Shown: positions 13,455 to 23,100, numbered from the stretch's first letter. The stretch: DNA of 64,000 nucleotides from an uncultured Nitrososphaeraceae archaeon (GCA_963779615.1 CAVZZA010000004.1:32001-96000); one strand, 5' to 3'. The notes: a model not told the origin generated them from the letters alone. A program made the numbers and translations.

Positions 13455-14864
13455 TTATTTTTCAGCTACCTTTTCTATTATTTCAATAAAGCATTTTGTA
13501 GCTTTGTTTAATAAATCTATATTTGCAAATTCGTTAGGCGAATGTATCTTATTGGGTAAAACTGTACTTCCTATGCAGATCGAATCTACAGATAGGAGCT
13601 TCTTAAAGCTGTACATTGGACCCGTTCCAGGGGATGAAATATTTAAAACTACATCACTGTAAATTTTCTTTGCTGCCTCTATGACTAAATCAACATATTC
13701 GCTATCAAGTGCGGTTCTACATGCAGGCTCGCCACTTAAATATGATATTTGCAGTTCATCTTCAGAATAACCCTTTGCCCTGAGATGCGATACCAATTTT
13801 TTGAATTGAGTTTTTGGGTTCATATACGAGACCAACCTAAAATCTATCTTTGCGGATGCGTTTGAAGGAATGATTGTCTTTATGCCACTGTTTATGTATC
13901 CGGAGTATAGGCCTGATATATTACAGGTGGGATCCAGTGCCAGGGACTTTTTTATCGCAAAACCTGAAGCCTCATTGACAAATTTACTCACTCCGTATTC
14001 TTTTTTGAATTCCTCTTCATCAAAGAATTCCTTTGTTAATTGATAGAGTTCTTTGTCTGATAATTGTTTAATTTCGTCATACCATCCGTCAATCAGAATT
14101 TTGCCATGTTCATCATATATTGATGATAGTGCATGAATCAGCTTCCAAGCAGGGTTTTCGATGACCACGGCAAGGCTAGAATGCACATCCCTAGAGGGTC
14201 CTTTGACCTTTAATTCAACATTCAGGATACCTTTTTGACCAAGGGATATAATGGACCTTCCTTTATTGTCAATATATCCACTTTCCCAGATTATCAAATC
14301 ACATTTAAATCTGTCACCATATTTTAACAAATATTTGTTTAGATTGGGACTACCAATTTCTTCCTCACCCTCTATTAAAAATTTGACGTTGCAGGGAACG
14401 TCCCCAGTTTGCTTTAGAATGAATTCTACAGCTTTTAGCCTTGTTATTAATTCACCTTTATCGTCAGACGATCCTCTGCCATAAATCATATTGCCATCAA
14501 TTTTGCCACTAAATGGATTCTCGCTCCATTTTTCAACTGGATCAATAGGTTGGACATCATAGTGGTTGTAGAATAGAATTGTTTTGCCATAGGGATTCGA
14601 TTTTGACTTTACCTCTCCAAAAACCAGTGGGGGGATGTTTAAAACGCCCTCAGTGTTATTGCCATAATCAAACTGATCCAAATACAATCTTTCTGTATCG
14701 ATTCCTGCCTTGTTCATCATGTTTGATAAAAGCTCTGCACATTCTTCTAGCCCATAGTTTATTGCAGAAATGCTGGCTTGTCTGATTAGATCCTGCAGAT
14801 CTGAAATGAGGTCACCCATATTTTCGTCAACTAAAGACGGGGAGACCAGAACTTTTTCAGCCAT
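13455..14864 (-). CDS. M20 metallopeptidase, dipeptidase-like
   Basis: YNHYDVQP, GRGSSDDKG, EGEEEIGS, HSPNE. Confidence 0.92.
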   Translation of the reverse strand: MAEKVLVSPSLVDENMGDLISDLQDLIRQASISAINYGLEECAELLSNMMNKAGIDTERLYLDQFDYGNNTEGVLNIPPLVFGEVKSKSNPYGKTILFYNHYDVQPIDPVEKWSENPFSGKIDGNMIYGRGSSDDKGELITRLKAVEFILKQTGDVPCNVKFLIEGEEEIGSPNLNKYLLKYGDRFKCDLIIWESGYIDNKGRSIISLGQKGILNVELKVKGPSRDVHSSLAVVIENPAWKLIHALSSIYDEHGKILIDGWYDEIKQLSDKELYQLTKEFFDEEEFKKEYGVSKFVNEASGFAIKKSLALDPTCNISGLYSGYINSGIKTIIPSNASAKIDFRLVSYMNPKTQFKKLVSHLRAKGYSEDELQISYLSGEPACRTALDSEYVDLVIEAAKKIYSDVVLNISSPGTGPMYSFKKLLSVDSICIGSTVLPNKIHSPNEFANIDLLNKATKCFIEIIEKVAEK

Positions 14865-15041
14865 AATTTTCCATTGCCCCTGAATTCTTATCCAACATAA
14901 AAAAATTTAATCCCACATTTAATACTATACTACTGTTTTCTCTCAACTTATCTATTAAGATTTTTTTAAAAAAGTCACATATTTTTCTTTAGTAAACAAA
15001 TAAGGTAAAAATCATTTGTAATATACAAAGTGCAAATTCTA

Positions 15042-16286
15042 CTATAATAATGGGGAATTGTCCTTTGTTTTGTTCCAAACGTGTTGAATAATCTCTGAAA
15101 CAGTTTGGTTGACGTTGCCGTTGTATTTTGATTCCCATAATCTAGAAACATATAACCCAGGTGATGTTTTGTTATTCAACCTTGATTCCAAGATACCTAT
15201 AAACTCAGATCCAAGTCCTAGATCATATAACCCCTTTTTTGCAACATGTAATTGAGATCTGATTGTTTCTGAGATATCGAAATGTGTTTTTGCATTGTAT
15301 CCTGAATGAATTACGGCCATCCGCTCTTCGCGAATGGACGAAAGTGGTCTTAACGCCTTGCCTTCAAGGATTGATCTGTAAAGAAATCCAATAAAGAATT
15401 CTATCATTGCCACCATTTCCTTGGGTGTTGGCTGAACAGCCATTATTCTTGTTTCAACTCTGTAAAATTCAGAATTTAGTCTGATTCTCAGATCGTCATG
15501 TCTGTCTTTTTCCAACTGCAAGTAGTCATTTGATGTTGTTCCTGATCTTGACATAATGTAATCAATATAGTCTTCTAATTTGTCTAAATAACGTGGTATT
15601 GCGGGAAACCCCGAATTTTGTTGTTCAGAATGGTCATATAAATAAATCCTTGGTGCATATAATGAATATAGCTTTCCTGCAAATAATCTGCTGTTGGAGC
15701 CCAATAGAAGGGCTGAAGGAATTAAATTGAGCAAATAATTAAACATATTTGAAGTATAGACCGGGTTTTTTCCTTGAAGGTGCAGATGAAATCCCTGTAT
15801 GGCTGTTGCTATGTCACGGGCTTTGAAGACTTGCCCTTCAAGCTCTATGTCTGGTGTTTTGATTTGCGAATTATAGAGATTTTGATAACGCTCCTTTCTT
15901 GTGACAAATTTTCTTTTGAATATCTCTGGTGATGGGTTGCCCCCTAAAAAAACAGGGATAACATGCCTATTTTTGTAAACCTTGTTTATGGATGAGGAGA
16001 GAAAATCTAAAAATTCTTCAAAGAATGAATTTATAGTTGAAAGATTGTGCATCGATATAGGGTCTGTTATTACTTCAAACTGACATTTCCCATATTCTGA
16101 ATCAACCTTATATTTAGAACATAACTCTTTGATTAAAGGATGAGCATTTACAGGCAAAGCTTTATCGTCTAATAAACAGGCTTCAACCTCCACCCCTACC
16201 CTATAAACTTCATCAATTCGATGATGATCATCCTGAACTCTTTTTTTTAGTCCAATCGATTGGCTAGTTAGCATGTTATCCATCAT
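15042..16286 (-). CDS. Glutamate-cysteine ligase family 2 (GCS2/YbdK-like) carboxylate-amine ligase
   Basis: VGVEVE, QFEVITDP, GFHLHL, DLRIR, RVETRI. Confidence 0.8.
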   Translation of the reverse strand: MMDNMLTSQSIGLKKRVQDDHHRIDEVYRVGVEVEACLLDDKALPVNAHPLIKELCSKYKVDSEYGKCQFEVITDPISMHNLSTINSFFEEFLDFLSSSINKVYKNRHVIPVFLGGNPSPEIFKRKFVTRKERYQNLYNSQIKTPDIELEGQVFKARDIATAIQGFHLHLQGKNPVYTSNMFNYLLNLIPSALLLGSNSRLFAGKLYSLYAPRIYLYDHSEQQNSGFPAIPRYLDKLEDYIDYIMSRSGTTSNDYLQLEKDRHDDLRIRLNSEFYRVETRIMAVQPTPKEMVAMIEFFIGFLYRSILEGKALRPLSSIREERMAVIHSGYNAKTHFDISETIRSQLHVAKKGLYDLGLGSEFIGILESRLNNKTSPGLYVSRLWESKYNGNVNQTVSEIIQHVWNKTKDNSPLL

Positions 16287-16449
16287 CGATAATTCCTACA
16301 GTAGATTCATACTATAAATTTGTTTATAAAGATATATTTATCAAAAAACCTGCTAAGATGTTTAGTTAAAACAATCTGAAGATATCTTCTATATAGTTCT
16401 ATATGCTATAACATACCTTTCAATAATAACATTGATTGTCATCGGGCAG

Positions 16450-16947
16450 TCAATAATCATCGTTTATAAACAGCCTTTTTGTTTTCCTGTAGTCTATTGT
16501 TACCTGTTTATGGCATCTATAACATAATGTTCTCAGGTTGTCTTTATTGTGGAAAAACTCAATTATTGTTTTTATCTTATTTTCAAGTGTGTCAAAGCGA
16601 TAACCAAAGTTGTAATAGTTTGACTTGGGGATTAGGTGATCACACTCCAGCCAGTTTTGTATCTTCTTATTGTAACGTTTTCTTTTATGTAATCTTATCC
16701 CACAAATTTGGCAGGTGTAATTATCTCGCTTTAATACGCTGTTTCTAATCCTGCTCCAATAAAAATTTGAATTATACCATTTGGAAAATTCTTTACTGCA
16801 TTTTTTTGAACAGTATTTCCTGAAAGGTTTAGTTACTTTTAAATTACAATTATTGTTCCTACAAATAGATTCTTTTTTCTCATTGTATTTATCAAATTCA
16901 CTTATATACACTATAAACTTTTCAGTCTTGTCTTTTGGAGTAGTCAT
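16450..16947 (-). CDS. HNH endonuclease with N-terminal Zn finger
   Basis: C-x4-C...YCSKKC; WSRIRNSVLKRDNYTCQICG, ECDHLIP, DNLRTLCYRCH. Confidence 0.9.
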   Translation of the reverse strand: MTTPKDKTEKFIVYISEFDKYNEKKESICRNNNCNLKVTKPFRKYCSKKCSKEFSKWYNSNFYWSRIRNSVLKRDNYTCQICGIRLHKRKRYNKKIQNWLECDHLIPKSNYYNFGYRFDTLENKIKTIIEFFHNKDNLRTLCYRCHKQVTIDYRKTKRLFINDDY

Positions 16948-17174
16948 AACCTATCCAAAATATTCAAAAACAACTAAATAAAAAATTATTTTTTTGCCTC
17001 AACCCTGTGTATCATCTTGACGAATCCTCACTATAAAAACTTAATTACTTGTGTGCCTACTATGCAAACCCAAACGGTAATTAAGGAGTCACCCATTTTC
17101 CTGATGATTAAGCGAAGTCATTTTTTATCAAAATAGTTTGGGATAATTTAGTTTATGTCAAGCGGTTCCATTGG

Positions 17175-17261
17175 AAAATCGAATAACTCGGGAACTTGAT
17201 AGGTTTGCTGTTTTTCAATTTAAATAATTGAATTCTTTGCTTGGCATATTTTAAGTGTTTA
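17175..17261 (-). repeat. Left arm of a perfect 87-bp inverted repeat (copy of heme A synthase promoter and 5' end)
   Basis: Exact reverse complement of 17649-17735, checked base by base. Confidence 0.97.
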
Positions 17262-17648
17262 CTATTCATGCTCTGCCGAAAGAAATAAGGTTATTTTTTT
17301 AATAGTATTTGTTGTGTATGATCTTTTCATTAAAAACCGCTGAAATTCTTTGGTCATAAATGCTTAAGGTGTTTACACTATGTTGTATAGGCTATGCTGC
17401 TGCTTTTCAGTTACTGATTGTTAATGTTGGTAGAAGGTGCATCCTATTCGTTGCTATACTATTAATTCCATTAAGGTCCAAAAAAGGGGTTTAGGTGTTT
17501 TGTTTCTGTATGCTTTATTGTCCCTGTATTTAGTAAATGTAAAAACTAGGAGCCTTTGTGGTCATGACACAAATTGCTATTTCCCATGCTAGTTTACATT
17601 GATGTTAATTATCTACTTGGACTTTAAGGATCATAAGCAGCAAAATAA

Positions 17649-17735
17649 TAAACACTTAAAATATGCCAAGCAAAGAATTCAATTATTTAAATTGAAAAAC
17701 AGCAAACCTATCAAGTTCCCGAGTTATTCGATTTT
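17649..17735 (+). repeat. Right arm of the 87-bp inverted repeat, containing a TATA-like box, a TTCAATT-N5-AATTGAA palindrome and the probable TTG start
   Basis: taaacacttaaaatatg...gagttattcgatttt; palindrome at 17678-17696. Confidence 0.97.
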
Positions 17736-18165
17736 TGTCGTGTTATTTATTCTGTTAGGGTTAATTTTTTCGGTGATGTTGATAGGGGTTTTTATCACAT
17801 CTAGCCATCAGGGATTATCCTGTTTAACATGGCCTTTGTGTCCAAACGGGTTTGACTTTCCACCACCAAAGTATTTTTATGAGCATCTCCATAGATCCTT
17901 GATTTTAGTATTAGCCATAATCCTGTTTTCTTTCACCTTTTTTTCTCTAAAGAAAATCCGGAACAAAAAATTTCTAGCTAAACTAGCAATAGCATCAATA
18001 ATCTTAACTACCCAAATCGCACTGGGATGGCTTGTAATAAATTCAAAGTTACATCCCATTGTTGTCGCAACTCATCTCTCTACCGCCGTGGCATTATTTG
18101 GGATTGTTCTTATTGCCTTACTATCTGTGTATAACGAACTAAGGGGTGAAAAGGTAAAAATTTAA
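17692..18165 (+). CDS. ctaA: Short COX15/CtaA-family heme A synthase
   Basis: GLSCLTWPLCPNG...EHLHR, QIALG, HLSTA; TTG at 17692 is in frame and ~30 bp after a TATA-like box (ORF track starts at 17599). Confidence 0.82.
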   Translation: MKNSKPIKFPSYSIFVVLFILLGLIFSVMLIGVFITSSHQGLSCLTWPLCPNGFDFPPPKYFYEHLHRSLILVLAIILFSFTFFSLKKIRNKKFLAKLAIASIILTTQIALGWLVINSKLHPIVVATHLSTAVALFGIVLIALLSVYNELRGEKVKI

Positions 18166-18167
18166 AA

Positions 18168-19202
18168 TCAAATCTTTGTTAGTTTGAACATATTCGACAT
18201 GTTAATTTCCATGCCATATCTGTTTTCTTGCCTTTTCATATGGATATAGATTTTTAATAGATCTACAAAGTTTTTGAATATGCTAAAATTATTGGATATT
18301 TTCATCTTTATAAAATTGTACACAATTGTGTAAATTTTGAATTTTTTTAGGACTTCGTTGTAATACTCGGGTAAATTGTCCATATTTTTGACAAAAATAT
18401 CCGCACAAATTGTGGATGGTATTATACCCTCTCCCAGGAGAGGATAAACCGTTCCAATGGATTCACCAACACCAACAGTCTTTTTTCCGTCAGTAAATGG
18501 TATGCACTTTGAGGGGGGAGTTATTCTAACGGGTCTTCCCACCTTTTTAATTACATTACACTTGTATCTTTTTAAAAATGACTCAAGAAACTCATTTGTG
18601 TGTTTTCGCCTAAAATCCCCTGAACCGATATGGGCATAACCGTTACCTAGGGGGAAATACCAAAAATAACCAGATAGTGAGGGAAATGCTTTAAGATAAA
18701 AATCATCAAAAGGAACGCTATCGTCATATTTTACTTTATATTGTATGCATGGAATCCATAATTCATCCTTTAGTTTTGGTAGGTAATGTCTATGGAACCC
18801 AGTAGAATCAATAATCAAATCAAAATCATTTTCTAGGATGTTTTTTTCCGGAACCTTGTTAAATACAACATCAGTCCCTTTAATCATATCTTGAATAAGC
18901 CTCAATTTATCATAACTTACCATACCTTTTAAATTAATCTGAATGTTGCTATCGCTATCAATACCCTTTCCAATATCAACAGTCATTTTTTTCCCATCAT
19001 GTAAAACGTAATTTTCAAAATTAAGGCCACACCTGTTTGCATAATCTTTCATTTTATTGTCAACTGTTGCCCAGGCGCATACCGCATCATGGTTTTTTTC
19101 TTCCATACGCTCAAATCCCATTACATGAACATCATGAAGATTACTGAGCTGATTCATCAAGTATGCTCCTGCTACGCCTATTCCTACAACGGCAATCTTC
19201 AT
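18168..19202 (-). CDS. FAD-dependent oxidoreductase, geranylgeranyl-reductase family
   Basis: MKIAVVGIGVAG, GYFWYFP, VGESIGTVYPLLGEGI. Confidence 0.85.
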   Translation of the reverse strand: MKIAVVGIGVAGAYLMNQLSNLHDVHVMGFERMEEKNHDAVCAWATVDNKMKDYANRCGLNFENYVLHDGKKMTVDIGKGIDSDSNIQINLKGMVSYDKLRLIQDMIKGTDVVFNKVPEKNILENDFDLIIDSTGFHRHYLPKLKDELWIPCIQYKVKYDDSVPFDDFYLKAFPSLSGYFWYFPLGNGYAHIGSGDFRRKHTNEFLESFLKRYKCNVIKKVGRPVRITPPSKCIPFTDGKKTVGVGESIGTVYPLLGEGIIPSTICADIFVKNMDNLPEYYNEVLKKFKIYTIVYNFIKMKISNNFSIFKNFVDLLKIYIHMKRQENRYGMEINMSNMFKLTKI

Positions 19203-19253
19203 AATTATAATCATCTACAACAGTAGGACAAATAAATGATTTCATTGATAATT

Positions 19254-19922
19254 TGCACTGTTAACTTAGGATATTATTTCTTTGTTGTGATGATCAATGA
19301 ACAGATCAAACCTTTTCTTTATGTGCTTTAATTTACACCCGAGTTTCTTACACGAAAAGTAATCGTCAAAACTTTCGTTTCTCTCCTTCACATACTGCAT
19401 CGCCTTTCAAAGAGGATTTTTTCGTATGGGGGATGAATGTGATGCTCCAATTTCAGGAATTTACAGGCTTGCGGATACCAACTACCACCATCTGTTGAAA
19501 AAGGTTTATGGCCATGTTTTTCCACGAAATTCGAACTGGACCGCTCTGCAGCAATCATATTCCGTTCCTTTGATATACTTGTTGCAATCATCTCTTTATC
19601 TTTGGCTCGACAGCAATCCGCAACCAGATGTACTCAGAGCCAGCCCCGATGGCAGTTTCATAAATTATATATTCTGAAATGTTCTTTTTCTTCCTTGACG
19701 CTGTCTTTGGCCTGCATTTTTGTATACATTTCCAGACGGAAGCAATGGCTTATGCTCACCATATGCAAAAAAGACTATGCTTTTGCAGTGTTTCTAGATG
19801 ATAAGCCTAAAAGTACAAGTATAAACCATAACCAATAAACTGTGATGGTGTTCTTTTTTTGGAGTTCAGAAAGGGAATAGGGCATCTTCGAGCCATGGGT
19901 TTTTCCTTGAGTTAACAGGGCC
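19254..19922 (-). mobile_element. Degenerate IS6-family insertion sequence (transposase pseudogene)
   Basis: Broken frames give LGLSSRNTAKA, SVWKCIQK, YIWLRIAVEP, ISKERNMIAAE, STDGGSWYPQAC and ESFDDYF. Imperfect TIRs tgcactgttaactt / gagttaacagggcc; flanks gataattt / cataattt resemble an 8-bp target duplication. Confidence 0.88.
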
Positions 19923-19969
19923 CATAATTTAAGAATATGCATATAAACGTACTCGGATTTAGTGTGTAA

Positions 19970-20179
19970 ATGAAGAGAAAGAAAAACAGTAAAGTTCCTG
20001 GTCCTATACGAATAGGCATTGCCCTTCTTATTTTCGGTGCGATAGTTGTGGGTCTTGGTACTGTTTTAAATAAAGATGCCTTGTCCTTATATGGGTTTAT
20101 AGTTGTTGTGTGTGGTTTTTTTCTATATTTCGCATCTTCAATATACCTAAAAAAACAAGAAAAAAGCAAAATCAAGTAA
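19970..20179 (+). CDS. Small 2-TM membrane protein
   Basis: 69 aa, two hydrophobic helices with basic termini. Confidence 0.7.
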   Translation: MKRKKNSKVPGPIRIGIALLIFGAIVVGLGTVLNKDALSLYGFIVVVCGFFLYFASSIYLKKQEKSKIK

Positions 20180-23100
20180 CTATTGTATATAAATTGCAGG
20201 TTTAAATGGTCTTGAATGCTTTGATTTTTTGTGAGGATCTAGAATTCCATCCTGGTCTTCTTTGCATATTAATATATTGTCAGATGAAACATCATACTCG
20301 GTTGATAAGAGTGAAATAGCGTCAAGTAACGGTTTAGCCTCATCAAATTTGCCCATGTTGTGTCTTCTTTCTCTGTCTTTGGGAGTCAAAGAAAGAATGT
20401 CGTCAATTGTTTTTTTTATAAAGTCGGTATTGTTTTTTATGACGCCTCTTAAGTTATCATCATTATGTGAGTCAGCCAATAGCGCTTTCATTACTTCCCC
20501 AAAGTTTTTATTTTTATTTTGAGAATTTAAAAATAGCTTTAAAACCTTATAATATAAATAAATTTTATCCCCCGACGGTAAATATACATATATTTTGTTA
20601 ATCTTGGTGTTTTTTGTTATCTTTACTATTTTGTTTATATCATTTATTATATTTGAAATAAATTGTTCATTTTCGTCATAAACGTTATCGTTTCGTAAAT
20701 TGCTTTCGGGATATGGCCATGGACTGTTAAAAATTGAATCATTGTTACCAAATGTATGCCATAACTCTTCTGAAAGAAAAGGACAAAAAGGAGACAAAAT
20801 TTTGATTCTATTTATCAGGTATTTGTAAATTACAAGAATGTCTTTATTTTTTTTGTACAGTTTTCCGATTTTTGCAAATTTTCTTTTTTTATACCAATCA
20901 AAGTCTTTGTCCATCAAATATAGAGCAGCATTGAGAGCCTCTCTAATCTTTAATCTCTCAAAAGAATTTGTAATTTCAAATGTGTTAAGTTTTATCCTAC
21001 TTAACAACCATTCGTCCTCCATATCCAAGGTCTCAATTTTAGTAACTTTATTTAGGAAGTCGGTATCCAAAAAGCTATTAATTAAGTCTTTGTTGTCATT
21101 ATAGAATAAATTGCAAAAATGATATATTTCGTTTAATTTGGAATGTATTCCCTTAAGTGTTGAAAACGAAAAGTCAACATCCTGCAACAATTCGCCCAAA
21201 ACCAGCATCGCGACCCTTATTGAATCTGCGCCATATAGCTTGATTGCTTTTCTCAACGGTATTATATTTCCCATAGACTTGGACATTTTTTTCCCATCCA
21301 TCAAAACAGAGCCGTTTACGACAATTTGTTTAGGCCAATGTTTTTGAGGAAGCATGATGGAATGATTGAAAATAAAAAAGGAAAGGTGATTTGGAATAAG
21401 GTCTCTGCCCGAATGCCTGGAGTCCAACGGGTAGAAATACTCAAACTCTCTTTTTATCTCAAACGATAGGTTTAAAAAGTTCTTTAAATGGTCCATATCG
21501 AATGTTCCGTTCTCATTTTTTTGAAAATCCTCATTTGGGACTAAACTGCCATCTTCGTTTATTTTTTTAAAGTTTTTATCTCTTTTACTATATAAAACAT
21601 AATCGAAGAATGAGTCATCTATCAGGGTATCATATTTTTCCAAGTCTTTAGTGTTTACATATTTTGAAATAGTGTAGTAGATCATGTAAATTACTGAGTC
21701 AGACAAGCTTTCAATAATCCAATTCTTATCCCAGGGCAGCGGTGTTCCGAGTCCAGACTGCCTTGCGCACGCTCTCTCCCTTAACCAATTGAATACGTTC
21801 TCAAATTCCACTACGATTTCATCTGGTATCACCTCCATTTGCTTTAAGCATTTAAACGCTAATGCTTTCCACCTACTGTTGCCATAATTTATGAACCATT
21901 GATTATTGAGAACCTTTACATAACAAAGAGTACCGCATCTGCAATATACGGGTTTATTTGTTAACTCATAAAAAATTATTGAATTATTTGAGCTTAATAG
22001 TGTTCGTTTGACACTTTCTCTGGCTTTTGCAACAGCCATTCCTGTGTATGGTGTTTTATCATTCATAATTCCCTCATAAAATTCAAAACCGTATAAATCA
22101 GAGGTTGCCTTTTCCAAATTAGGATCAGATTGATCTTTGATAGAATATTTATTCAAGAAAAATAGTGATGGTGCAAAATCAAGGGTTCTACCATTAAAAC
22201 CTGGTTCCTTTGCTTGAGACTTTAGTCTATCAAAATCAAAATTAATTGTTTTTATAGGCTTTATGTTTTCAACAACTGTTTCTTTAAGCATAGGATCGCC
22301 TGATTTCTTAATGTCAAGCAACGCTTGCATGTCAAATGGTGCATGGGCTGGCACTGACATGACTATTCCACTTCCATCGTCCATACTAACAAAAGTTGCT
22401 GGCAGAACAGGTATGAGGGAATTGGTTATAGGGTTCTCAACCTCTCGATCGACTAGTCCCGAACCATTAATTTCACAAATAATTTCTGTTTCATAGTTTT
22501 GAAATTCCAATTTTTTTGCGGCAGTTTTACTTACAATCCACGTCTCATCATGATTTACTACAACCTTGAGATAGGGCTCCTGACTATTAACCCATAAATT
22601 AGTGGCACCAAAAATAGTCTCTGGTCGCAAAGTTGCCACAGGCAAAAATGTCTTTTCATCTGATAATTTAAACTTTATTAATGTGTATTCTGAAAATGAT
22701 GGCTCAATGTCTCCTAAAGTGTCATGTTGGCTTACAGGATTCCTGTCATTAGGACACCAACCGACAGGGTGAGACCCCTGTTCTATTACACCCAGATTTT
22801 GCAGTGTCTTGAACTGCCATGAGATAAACTTTTTGTATAAAGGATCAATTGTAGTAAATTCTCTTCTCCAATCAATAGAATAACCCATTTCAATCATTCC
22901 GGATTTGATTTCATTATGAAAATATTTCGCTATATTCATTGGATCAGCAAAGGAGTCAATTGTGTTCTGGTCAATCGAATATATTTTTTTAAAATTATCA
23001 ATTATTTCCTTGTCTTTAGATTGTACCCTTTTTGACATTCCCAGTATTGGGGTGCCCGTATAATGGAATCCCATCGGAAAAAGAACATTGTACCCTTTCA

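Follow-up and report, generated by a model that had tools for sequence, protein, structure and literature searches.

Inversions that arise from staggered breaks leave a recognizable signature: in the account of Ranz et al. 2007 (PMC1885836), a flanking sequence that is ancestrally unique is found twice, inverted, at both ends of the inverted segment. In the cases described there, such inverted duplications often involve one breakpoint only, as in 12 Drosophila inversions in which the sequence of just one breakpoint had been duplicated, and a repetitive element is not involved (PMC1885836). A comparable outcome is described for template-switch mutations and templated inverted insertions, in which a nearby stretch is copied from the opposite strand and inverted repeats are made or perfected; switching between nearby templates is reported to cause local rearrangements, homogenization of the arms and, in some cases, inversion of the spacer (PMC7954356, PMC8604942).

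MITEs and foldback elements have long inverted termini around a short non-coding core. Invertons, such as fim-type and Bacteroides switches, have inverted repeats that bracket a short intergenic segment by a promoter-driven gene, and their arms measure tens of bases. Work from the Roth laboratory on Salmonella reportedly traced tandem inversion duplications to snap-back or template switching at quasi-palindromes, with later remodeling by deletions; the products are said to be direct-inverted-direct triplications of large regions, under gene-dosage selection.

The locus examined here lies between a gene for an HNH endonuclease and the heme A synthase gene ctaA, in a 64,000-nt window (C4:32001-96000; this is the whole stretch of DNA that was analyzed, and positions are counted from its first letter). 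The genome, 3.17 Mb in five contigs, is that of a soil ammonia-oxidizing archaeon and encodes archaeal AmoA; the named relatives at the ctaA locus are Candidatus Nitrosocosmicus, in support of the family suggested in the preliminary description of this DNA, and the nearest species is ~77% identical. The locus resembles the inverted micro-duplications that template switches or staggered breaks produce, in that an ancestrally single-copy flank has an inverted second copy with sharp ends. With the Salmonella duplications it has an inverted-order duplication in common, one that may likewise stem from strand switching in replication, but it consists of a single 92-nt inverted copy. Whereas the Drosophila staggered-break inversions span kilobases to megabases (PMC1885836), the segment here measures 377 bp and lies within one intergenic region of an archaeon. 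The template-switch cases described so far in the sources cited are mostly short quasi-palindromes and multinucleotide changes (PMC7954356, PMC8604942), whereas here a 92-nt block would have been copied across 377 nt. The features of the locus are as follows.

16450..16947, minus strand: gene for a McrA-like HNH endonuclease, 165 aa, the divergent conserved neighbor of ctaA
16948..17000, minus strand: probable promoter region of the HNH gene itself, A/T-rich and TATA-like, as suggested by conservation
17001..17174: left flank, lineage-specific, without recognizable content
17153..17218, minus strand: mini-ORF with a TTG start and 21 codons, in translation 15 CtaA residues, then six new ones and a stop
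17175..17266, minus strand: left arm, which repeats the ctaA core promoter with TTG and 14.7 codons as a derived copy in inverted orientation
17214-17232, minus strand: mirrored palindrome of the left arm
17216-17218, minus strand: mirrored TTG of the left arm
17247-17254, minus strand: mirrored TATA-like box of the left arm
17267..17643: spacer, 377 nt, unique, non-coding by all tests
17644..17735, plus strand: right arm, the ancestral ctaA core promoter, palindrome, TTG and first codons
17656-17663, plus strand: TATA-like box TTAAAATA in an A-rich BRE-like block of the right arm
17678-17696: palindrome TTCAATT-N5-AATTGAA of the right arm, over the TTG start
17692-17694, plus strand: TTG start codon of ctaA
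17692..18165, plus strand: ctaA, short heme A synthase of 157 aa, archaeal single four-helix type

A repeat search found the two arms to be reverse complements over 92 nt (99% complementary) with a spacer of 377 nt, and base-by-base comparison placed the single mismatch at 17262, a C, against 17648. It follows that 17175-17261 is the exact reverse complement of 17649-17735, over 87 nt, just as the preliminary description of this DNA had claimed. Past both ends of the 92-nt arms, identity drops to chance level at once. When 15000-20000 was shuffled with its dinucleotides preserved (n = 30), the longest perfect inverted repeat within 1 kb measured 11-19 nt, compared to 87 nt in the real sequence; the arm repeat is thus far beyond chance, and its ends are sharp. 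Since four matches beyond the mismatch are unlikely by chance (an estimated ~1%), the copied unit was probably 92 nt long and acquired one later substitution at its unconstrained inner end. The "perfect identity" noted in the preliminary description therefore holds over 87 nt, but probably not over the whole unit that was copied. The rest of the anatomy given there was right as well: a second, inverted set of promoter, TTG start and ~15 codons points toward the HNH gene, which begins 227 nt from the left arm (at 16947; ~230 bp had been given); the palindrome lies over the TTG start; and translation confirmed that the 21-codon mini-ORF has its first 15 residues in common with CtaA. As single-stranded DNA, 17165-17745 folds into a full-length stem (-128.7 kcal/mol, z -16.9, DNA parameters). 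Across the five contigs, the arm sequence was found solely as these two arms.

We assessed whether the structure is real DNA using contigs of four public runs, built from 31-letter words and placed on 16400-18300; runs X1 and X3 belong to the same study and X2 to another. The parts without cover are 17205-17585 in X1, 17226-17416 in X3 and 17089-17651 in X2; X2 covers neither left junction. The left outer junction is crossed by one X3 contig (record 14, 17126-17212, depth 3.4), which extends 49 letters to one side of it and 38 to the other. An X1 contig (record 3, 17065-17204) stops 30 letters into the left arm, one letter below the 31-letter bridging rule, i.e., where a graph of 31-letter words would break if the arm were repeated. 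Another X1 contig (record 4, 17586-17735) ends exactly at 17735 with a depth ~2x that of its neighbors, which fits two copies of the arm and fits two co-occurring strains equally well. In X2, record 11 runs unbroken over 17652-17939, across the right outer edge, at a depth of 2.7; this could indicate either a strain that lacks the left arm or simply poor coverage.

At 17593 and 17595, both X1 and X3 depart from the assembly, as X3 does at four further spacer sites; the two runs therefore hold related strains and do not simply repeat the consensus. Since a short-read metagenome contig, X3 record 14, bridges the left outer junction, an artefact of assembly is unlikely. An assembly or library artefact, e.g., a fold-back chimera in the consensus, would be in keeping with the left inner junction (17266/17267), which has no contig cover in all four runs, and with the left outer junction, which by the 31-letter rule is bridged by one contig alone. 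However, the repeat sits 49 kb inside a 346-kb contig and encloses a unique spacer, unlike a fold-back end, and the bridging contig joins the left flank to the arm while carrying strain differences of its own. The exact stop of X1 record 3 and the differences at 17593 and 17595, which show that X1 and X3 are not copying the consensus, also argue for a real structure, and we regard an artefact as very unlikely.

The product of ctaA matched Pfam COX15-CtaA at 48.6 bits (cut-off 29.9), and orthologues were present in all 24 genus genomes searched. Type 1A denotes the archaeal single four-helix heme A synthase (PMC12808453), and the predicted protein fits this type (class A) by its domain, by its length of about half and by its Cys pair, which for this type belongs to the first external loop and which translation places within SCLTWPLC. 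Every Ca. Nitrosocosmicus relative compared has, at the promoter and 5′ end of ctaA, a sequence homologous to the right arm. When aligned with nine relatives from the genus, the upstream DNA was unalignable up to the block AAACAYTTAAAATA, an A-rich BRE-like element with the TATA-like box, after which the palindrome, the TTG and the first codons followed. This block was kept in 9 of the 11 aligned sequences, with slight departures in L020 and L022. In BLAST comparisons with 18 relatives, similarity began at 17602-17648 in 17 of them, that is, at the inner edge of the arm or at most ~45 nt upstream of it, and at 17710 in the remaining one (L019). Because the relatives share the block and conservation begins at the inner edge, the right arm is the ancestral ctaA core promoter with 14.7 codons.

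The TATA-like 8-mer lies at -36 from the TTG, and upstream of 1035 long ORFs of the same genome such 8-mers are enriched at -40 to -29. A conserved A-rich element with a TATA-like box at the usual distance makes this a putative archaeal core promoter (BRE/TATA), assigned by conservation and position, and the distance suggests that the ctaA mRNA is leaderless or has a very short leader. In a shorter form (TTCAA-N9-TTGAA), the start-site palindrome is kept in 9 of 11 aligned sequences, namely both arms of this genome and seven of the nine relatives, and may be a binding site for a regulator. A scan of the genome for AATTCAA-N7-9-TTGAA returned 15 sites with no coherent promoter context that would point to a regulon. 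A 28-nt look-alike of the palindrome was seen at one other locus in two relatives (G019:C185:4490-4517 and G005:C12:27073-27100).

In 14 of the 18 relatives, the left arm matched the ctaA promoter, and it did so in inverted orientation only. Since relatives match it solely as the inverted image of the ctaA block, the left arm is a derived, lineage-specific copy. This bears on whether the 561 bp from arm to arm could be a mobile element, of the MITE or foldback type, that had inserted at the 5′ end of ctaA and ends in inverted repeats of 92 bp. Long terminal inverted repeats around a short non-coding core would suit such an element, but what would be its right "terminal repeat" is host sequence, namely the ancestral promoter and the start of the coding region, and occurs in all relatives compared. 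Moreover, the unit is single-copy in its own genome, no copy was found in 33 genus genomes or among phages and plasmids, and there is no target-site duplication, as the flanks (...CCATTGG and TGTCGTG...) have no common direct repeat. We rejected a mobile-element origin on these grounds and give it hardly any credence.

To compare the locus among relatives, the intergenic region with 150-200 nt of each gene was compared against itself in this genome and in 18 relatives. None of the 18 relatives with the divergent HNH/ctaA pair has an inverted repeat there; in L033, a 16-nt palindrome was all that the intergenic self-comparison returned. This comparison had been proposed in the preliminary description, and its outcome is plain: the left arm is absent from all 18 relatives and the spacer from all 33 genus genomes. 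The start codons of the two genes are 105 to 1196 nt apart in the 18 relatives; the distance is 736 nt in G003, the closest species, and 741 nt in the present genome. In 6 of 12 relatives examined, an extra minus-strand ORF of 240-269 aa, rich in Ser, Thr and Asn, lies between HNH and ctaA. Given this range of lengths and the extra ORF, the intergenic region is structurally labile.

Together, these results make it probable, in our judgment, that a one-off error of replication or repair left a lineage-specific and likely neutral inverted micro-duplication. Under this account, a 92-nt piece with the ctaA core promoter (BRE/TATA) in full, the palindrome at the start site, the TTG and 14.7 codons would have been copied once, in reverse, and placed 377 nt further upstream, within intergenic DNA that evolves rapidly. 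Two routes may be envisaged. In the first, the polymerase would switch template to the opposite strand, copy 92 nt and return, leaving a templated inverted insertion. In the second, single-strand breaks staggered around the 92 nt and another break 377 nt upstream would be filled in and rejoined such that the segment is inverted, and the sequence between the staggered nicks would end up duplicated, inverted, at the far end. The product would be identical by either route, the one distinction being the orientation of the spacer, which only the second would have reversed from its ancestral state. Incidentally, the 92-bp arms would form a site prone to fold back, on which homologous exchange might occasionally flip the spacer. 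Among the possibilities that the preliminary description had listed, a scar of template switching or repair thus fits best: the copy is unique to the lineage, its ends are sharp and the intergenic region changes fast. It has the look of a recent scar rather than of a genetic switch. Set against a scar is the extent of the copy, which starts only a few bases from where the conserved block has its upstream edge and takes in the start codon; it thus amounts to a complete promoter module. Under a random error this is a coincidence, and it could be a hint of selection for a working second promoter.

The contigs also inform on the age of the duplication. In X3, the left arm carries an A>T change at 17182, and a contig of the right arm (record 17) is without it at the mirror position; the change could be an error, given the depth of 3.4. 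Between X3 and the assembly, 6 of 298 spacer sites differ. From the differences in arm and spacer, the duplication seems older than the split of these strains. At ~1-2% divergence, neutral drift predicts 0 or 1 differences in 87-92 nt, and neither conversion nor selection is needed to account for the likeness of the arms. The mismatch at the inner end and the X3 change at 17182 fit slow neutral decay better than homogenization, and the further left-arm difference in a second strain argues against ongoing homogenization in the strict sense, which the preliminary description had offered as one reading of the identity. The left copy itself is probably neutral, judging from its lack of conservation, a trait that a very young functional element would share.

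The protein encoded next to the left arm passed the Pfam HNH cut-off marginally (22.9 bits versus 21.4) and had 120 homologues at E<=1e-5, which are named McrA or HNH endonuclease at source and come from Ca. Nitrosocosmicus and other Nitrososphaerota; its motif makes it a predicted HNH endonuclease of the McrA-like kind. One homologue cluster (P0001) is 98% identical, which indicates that close strains exist. NCBIfam returned nothing above its cut-offs for four local proteins. In 19 of 20 genus loci examined (L016-L035, this locus included), the HNH gene adjoins ctaA, the exception being G011; so conserved a divergent neighbor is no stray mobile gene. Alignment with G003 and G010 extends to 16998 and 17000, respectively, ~50 nt upstream of the HNH start. 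Because this stretch is alignable with both genomes, and because relatives with a 105-nt intergenic region must house a promoter within it, the HNH gene seems to have its own promoter beside its start.

Since the left copy is identical to a working promoter, we expect it to fire on the minus strand, at ~17224. Over its 5′ ~50 nt, the RNA would be identical, in the sense direction, to the ctaA mRNA and would carry the 21-codon ORF. Between the copy and the HNH start, the minus strand has oligo-T tracts at 17039-17035, 16985-16980 and 16970-16966, and this orphan RNA would meet the first two of them before or at the HNH promoter.

The preliminary description had raised the idea that the HNH gene had captured this promoter. 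In its fuller form, the left copy would drive or co-regulate HNH, or act as a decoy that titrates a factor binding the palindrome, and would thereby couple HNH expression or ctaA dosage to the oxidase-heme program. The copy does, after all, comprise all of a core promoter module, matches the original over 87 nt without a difference and faces HNH, and its outer junction is present in a second strain. Shared control of HNH and ctaA is also conceivable in itself, because relatives with a 105-nt intergenic region place both promoters back to back. However, the ~50 nt upstream of HNH that can be aligned with the two closest relatives suggest that the gene has a promoter of its own, and together with its conserved position beside ctaA they leave capture without a need. 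Furthermore, the copy is absent from all 18 relatives, including G003, whose intergenic region is equally long; three oligo-T tracts stand between it and the HNH start; and the X3 change at 17182 is missing from the right arm. We therefore consider promoter capture or a decoy unlikely.

The spacer and the left flank were searched for content that might reveal a function or a source. GC and composition of the spacer are ordinary; its ORFs measure just 44 and 51 aa and have no Pfam match, and no Rfam match at E<=1 was found within 14000-21000. Neither strand of the spacer gave an unusually stable RNA fold (z +0.91 and -0.18), and tblastn detected no remnant of the 240-269-aa ORF of the relatives (E>=0.06). 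The spacer had no match in 33 other genus genomes or among phages and plasmids, and neither it nor the left flank has a second copy in its own genome. Neither spacer end aligned better than shuffles, whichever way round, to upstream DNA from nine relatives (all p>=0.09). Exact-pattern scans of metagenome contigs with a 27-nt word of the spacer and a 28-nt word of the arm gave no match, nor did a scan of genome contigs with the same 28-nt arm word.

The left flank had no match in the 33 genus genomes except for a 37-nt patch at 17115-17151. In four genus genomes (G047, G046, G022 and G004), the patch is matched with 84-86% identity, at corresponding sites, by an internal part of a methyltransferase-like ORF, which measures 297 aa as read in L041. 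The genome has its own methyltransferase-like orthologue at C1:126367-127230, and the match of the patch at the protein level is weak (E 0.26). We treat the patch as chance or as a tiny, untraceable filler. A patchwork of templated insertions was also considered as a source of the region and rejected: apart from the arm, 16948-17688 recurs in the genome merely as A/T-rich words of 15-24 nt.

A further possibility, which takes up the invertible segment of the preliminary description, is that the 92-bp arms invert the 377-nt spacer by homologous recombination or template switching, in a recombinase-independent flip-flop that would swap the DNA upstream of two identical promoters and create heterogeneity in the population. 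The arms exceed the tens of bases usual in invertons and are long enough for homologous exchange, and inverted repeats around a short intergenic segment are the geometry of an inverton. Template switching between the arms of inverted repeats is also reported to invert spacers (PMC8604942). Yet the resemblance to an inverton stops at geometry, as two testable defining features are lacking. First, the promoter is in the arms and not inside the flippable segment; with the promoters in the arms, a flip leaves both core promoters in place and alters distal upstream DNA only. Second, no serine or tyrosine recombinase is encoded nearby. A six-frame search of the whole genome with two families, PF00589 and PF00239, found none in the window, its matches lying at C1:517644, C4:213194-213766, C3:386804 and C5:94416, the nearest (C4:213194) ~164 kb away. 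In addition, the spacer contains no promoter, RNA or conserved element, and the structure at ctaA is conserved in none of the 18 relatives compared. As to orientation, the contigs showed no joints or strand changes, but both orientations of the spacer share all junction words shorter than the 92-nt arm, so that contigs built from 31-letter words would look alike in either case. Flipping of this kind appears decidedly improbable to us.

The same anatomy speaks to the suggestion, also made in the preliminary description, that the left copy is a source of antisense or fold-back RNA. Plus-strand transcription of the left arm would yield RNA antisense to the 5′ end of ctaA, and a transcript that ran through both arms would form a 92-bp hairpin, for which the full-length stem predicted for the strand provides the fold. 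However, RNA from the left copy's own promoter would have the sense sequence of the ctaA 5′ end, so that antisense would require read-through on the plus strand, and no plus-strand promoter was identified upstream of 17175. The ctaA transcript, for its part, starts inside the right arm and therefore lacks the left one. In RNA run X15, contigs at the locus cover 17723-17915 and 18207-18300 only, with 95-99% likeness. The antisense or hairpin reading accordingly strikes us as highly improbable.

A bolder version of these ideas would treat the duplicated module as a working second promoter and operator which, with its twin, forms a recombinase-free regulatory device, either coupling HNH to the heme A synthase program or flipping the 377-bp spacer and thereby varying the upstream context from cell to cell. 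We think the chances of this are slim; if true, it would be a case of archaeal promoter birth by inverted micro-duplication, caught within a species. As it stands, the locus is a small structural mutation, which by itself reveals no new system. As an inverted micro-duplication it is nonetheless a clean, datable example, in which a complete archaeal core promoter with its start codon would have gained, in a single step, a copy at another place and on the other strand. In a lineage of Ca. Nitrosocosmicus-like ammonia oxidizers for which genetics are unavailable, it amounts to a natural experiment on whether a minimal module of BRE/TATA and initiator suffices to fire out of context. It is also a fold-back-prone site of the sort that assemblers and inverton finders will flag.

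Several minor observations concern the genome and the sampled strains more broadly. A second short CtaA-like paralogue (~35% identity) is encoded at C1:114854-115273, and second CtaA-like matches are present in 23 of 24 other genus genomes. Heme A synthases of the single four-helix type are said to function as dimers (PMC12808453), which makes a heterodimer of CtaA and the paralogue conceivable. In X1, a contig over the 3′ part of ctaA (record 6, 17932-18270) is ~92% identical, with 26 differences in 339 nt, beside neighboring X1 contigs at 99-100%, so that several related strains co-occur in that sample.

Genome-wide, we counted 10 local inverted repeat pairs (>=45 nt, >=90% identity, <5 kb apart). 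Outside the window, a second perfect local inverted repeat was seen at C5:344354-344510 and C5:345114-345270, with 157-nt arms and a 603-nt spacer; the GC content of its spacer is 0.43 and that of its arms 0.35, and the surrounding region has short ORFs alone. Perfect arms over a sub-kilobase spacer are therefore rare in this genome, and the ctaA repeat is not unique, the C5 repeat (344354-345270) being one other; it may be another product of the same type of event as the inverted copy at ctaA.
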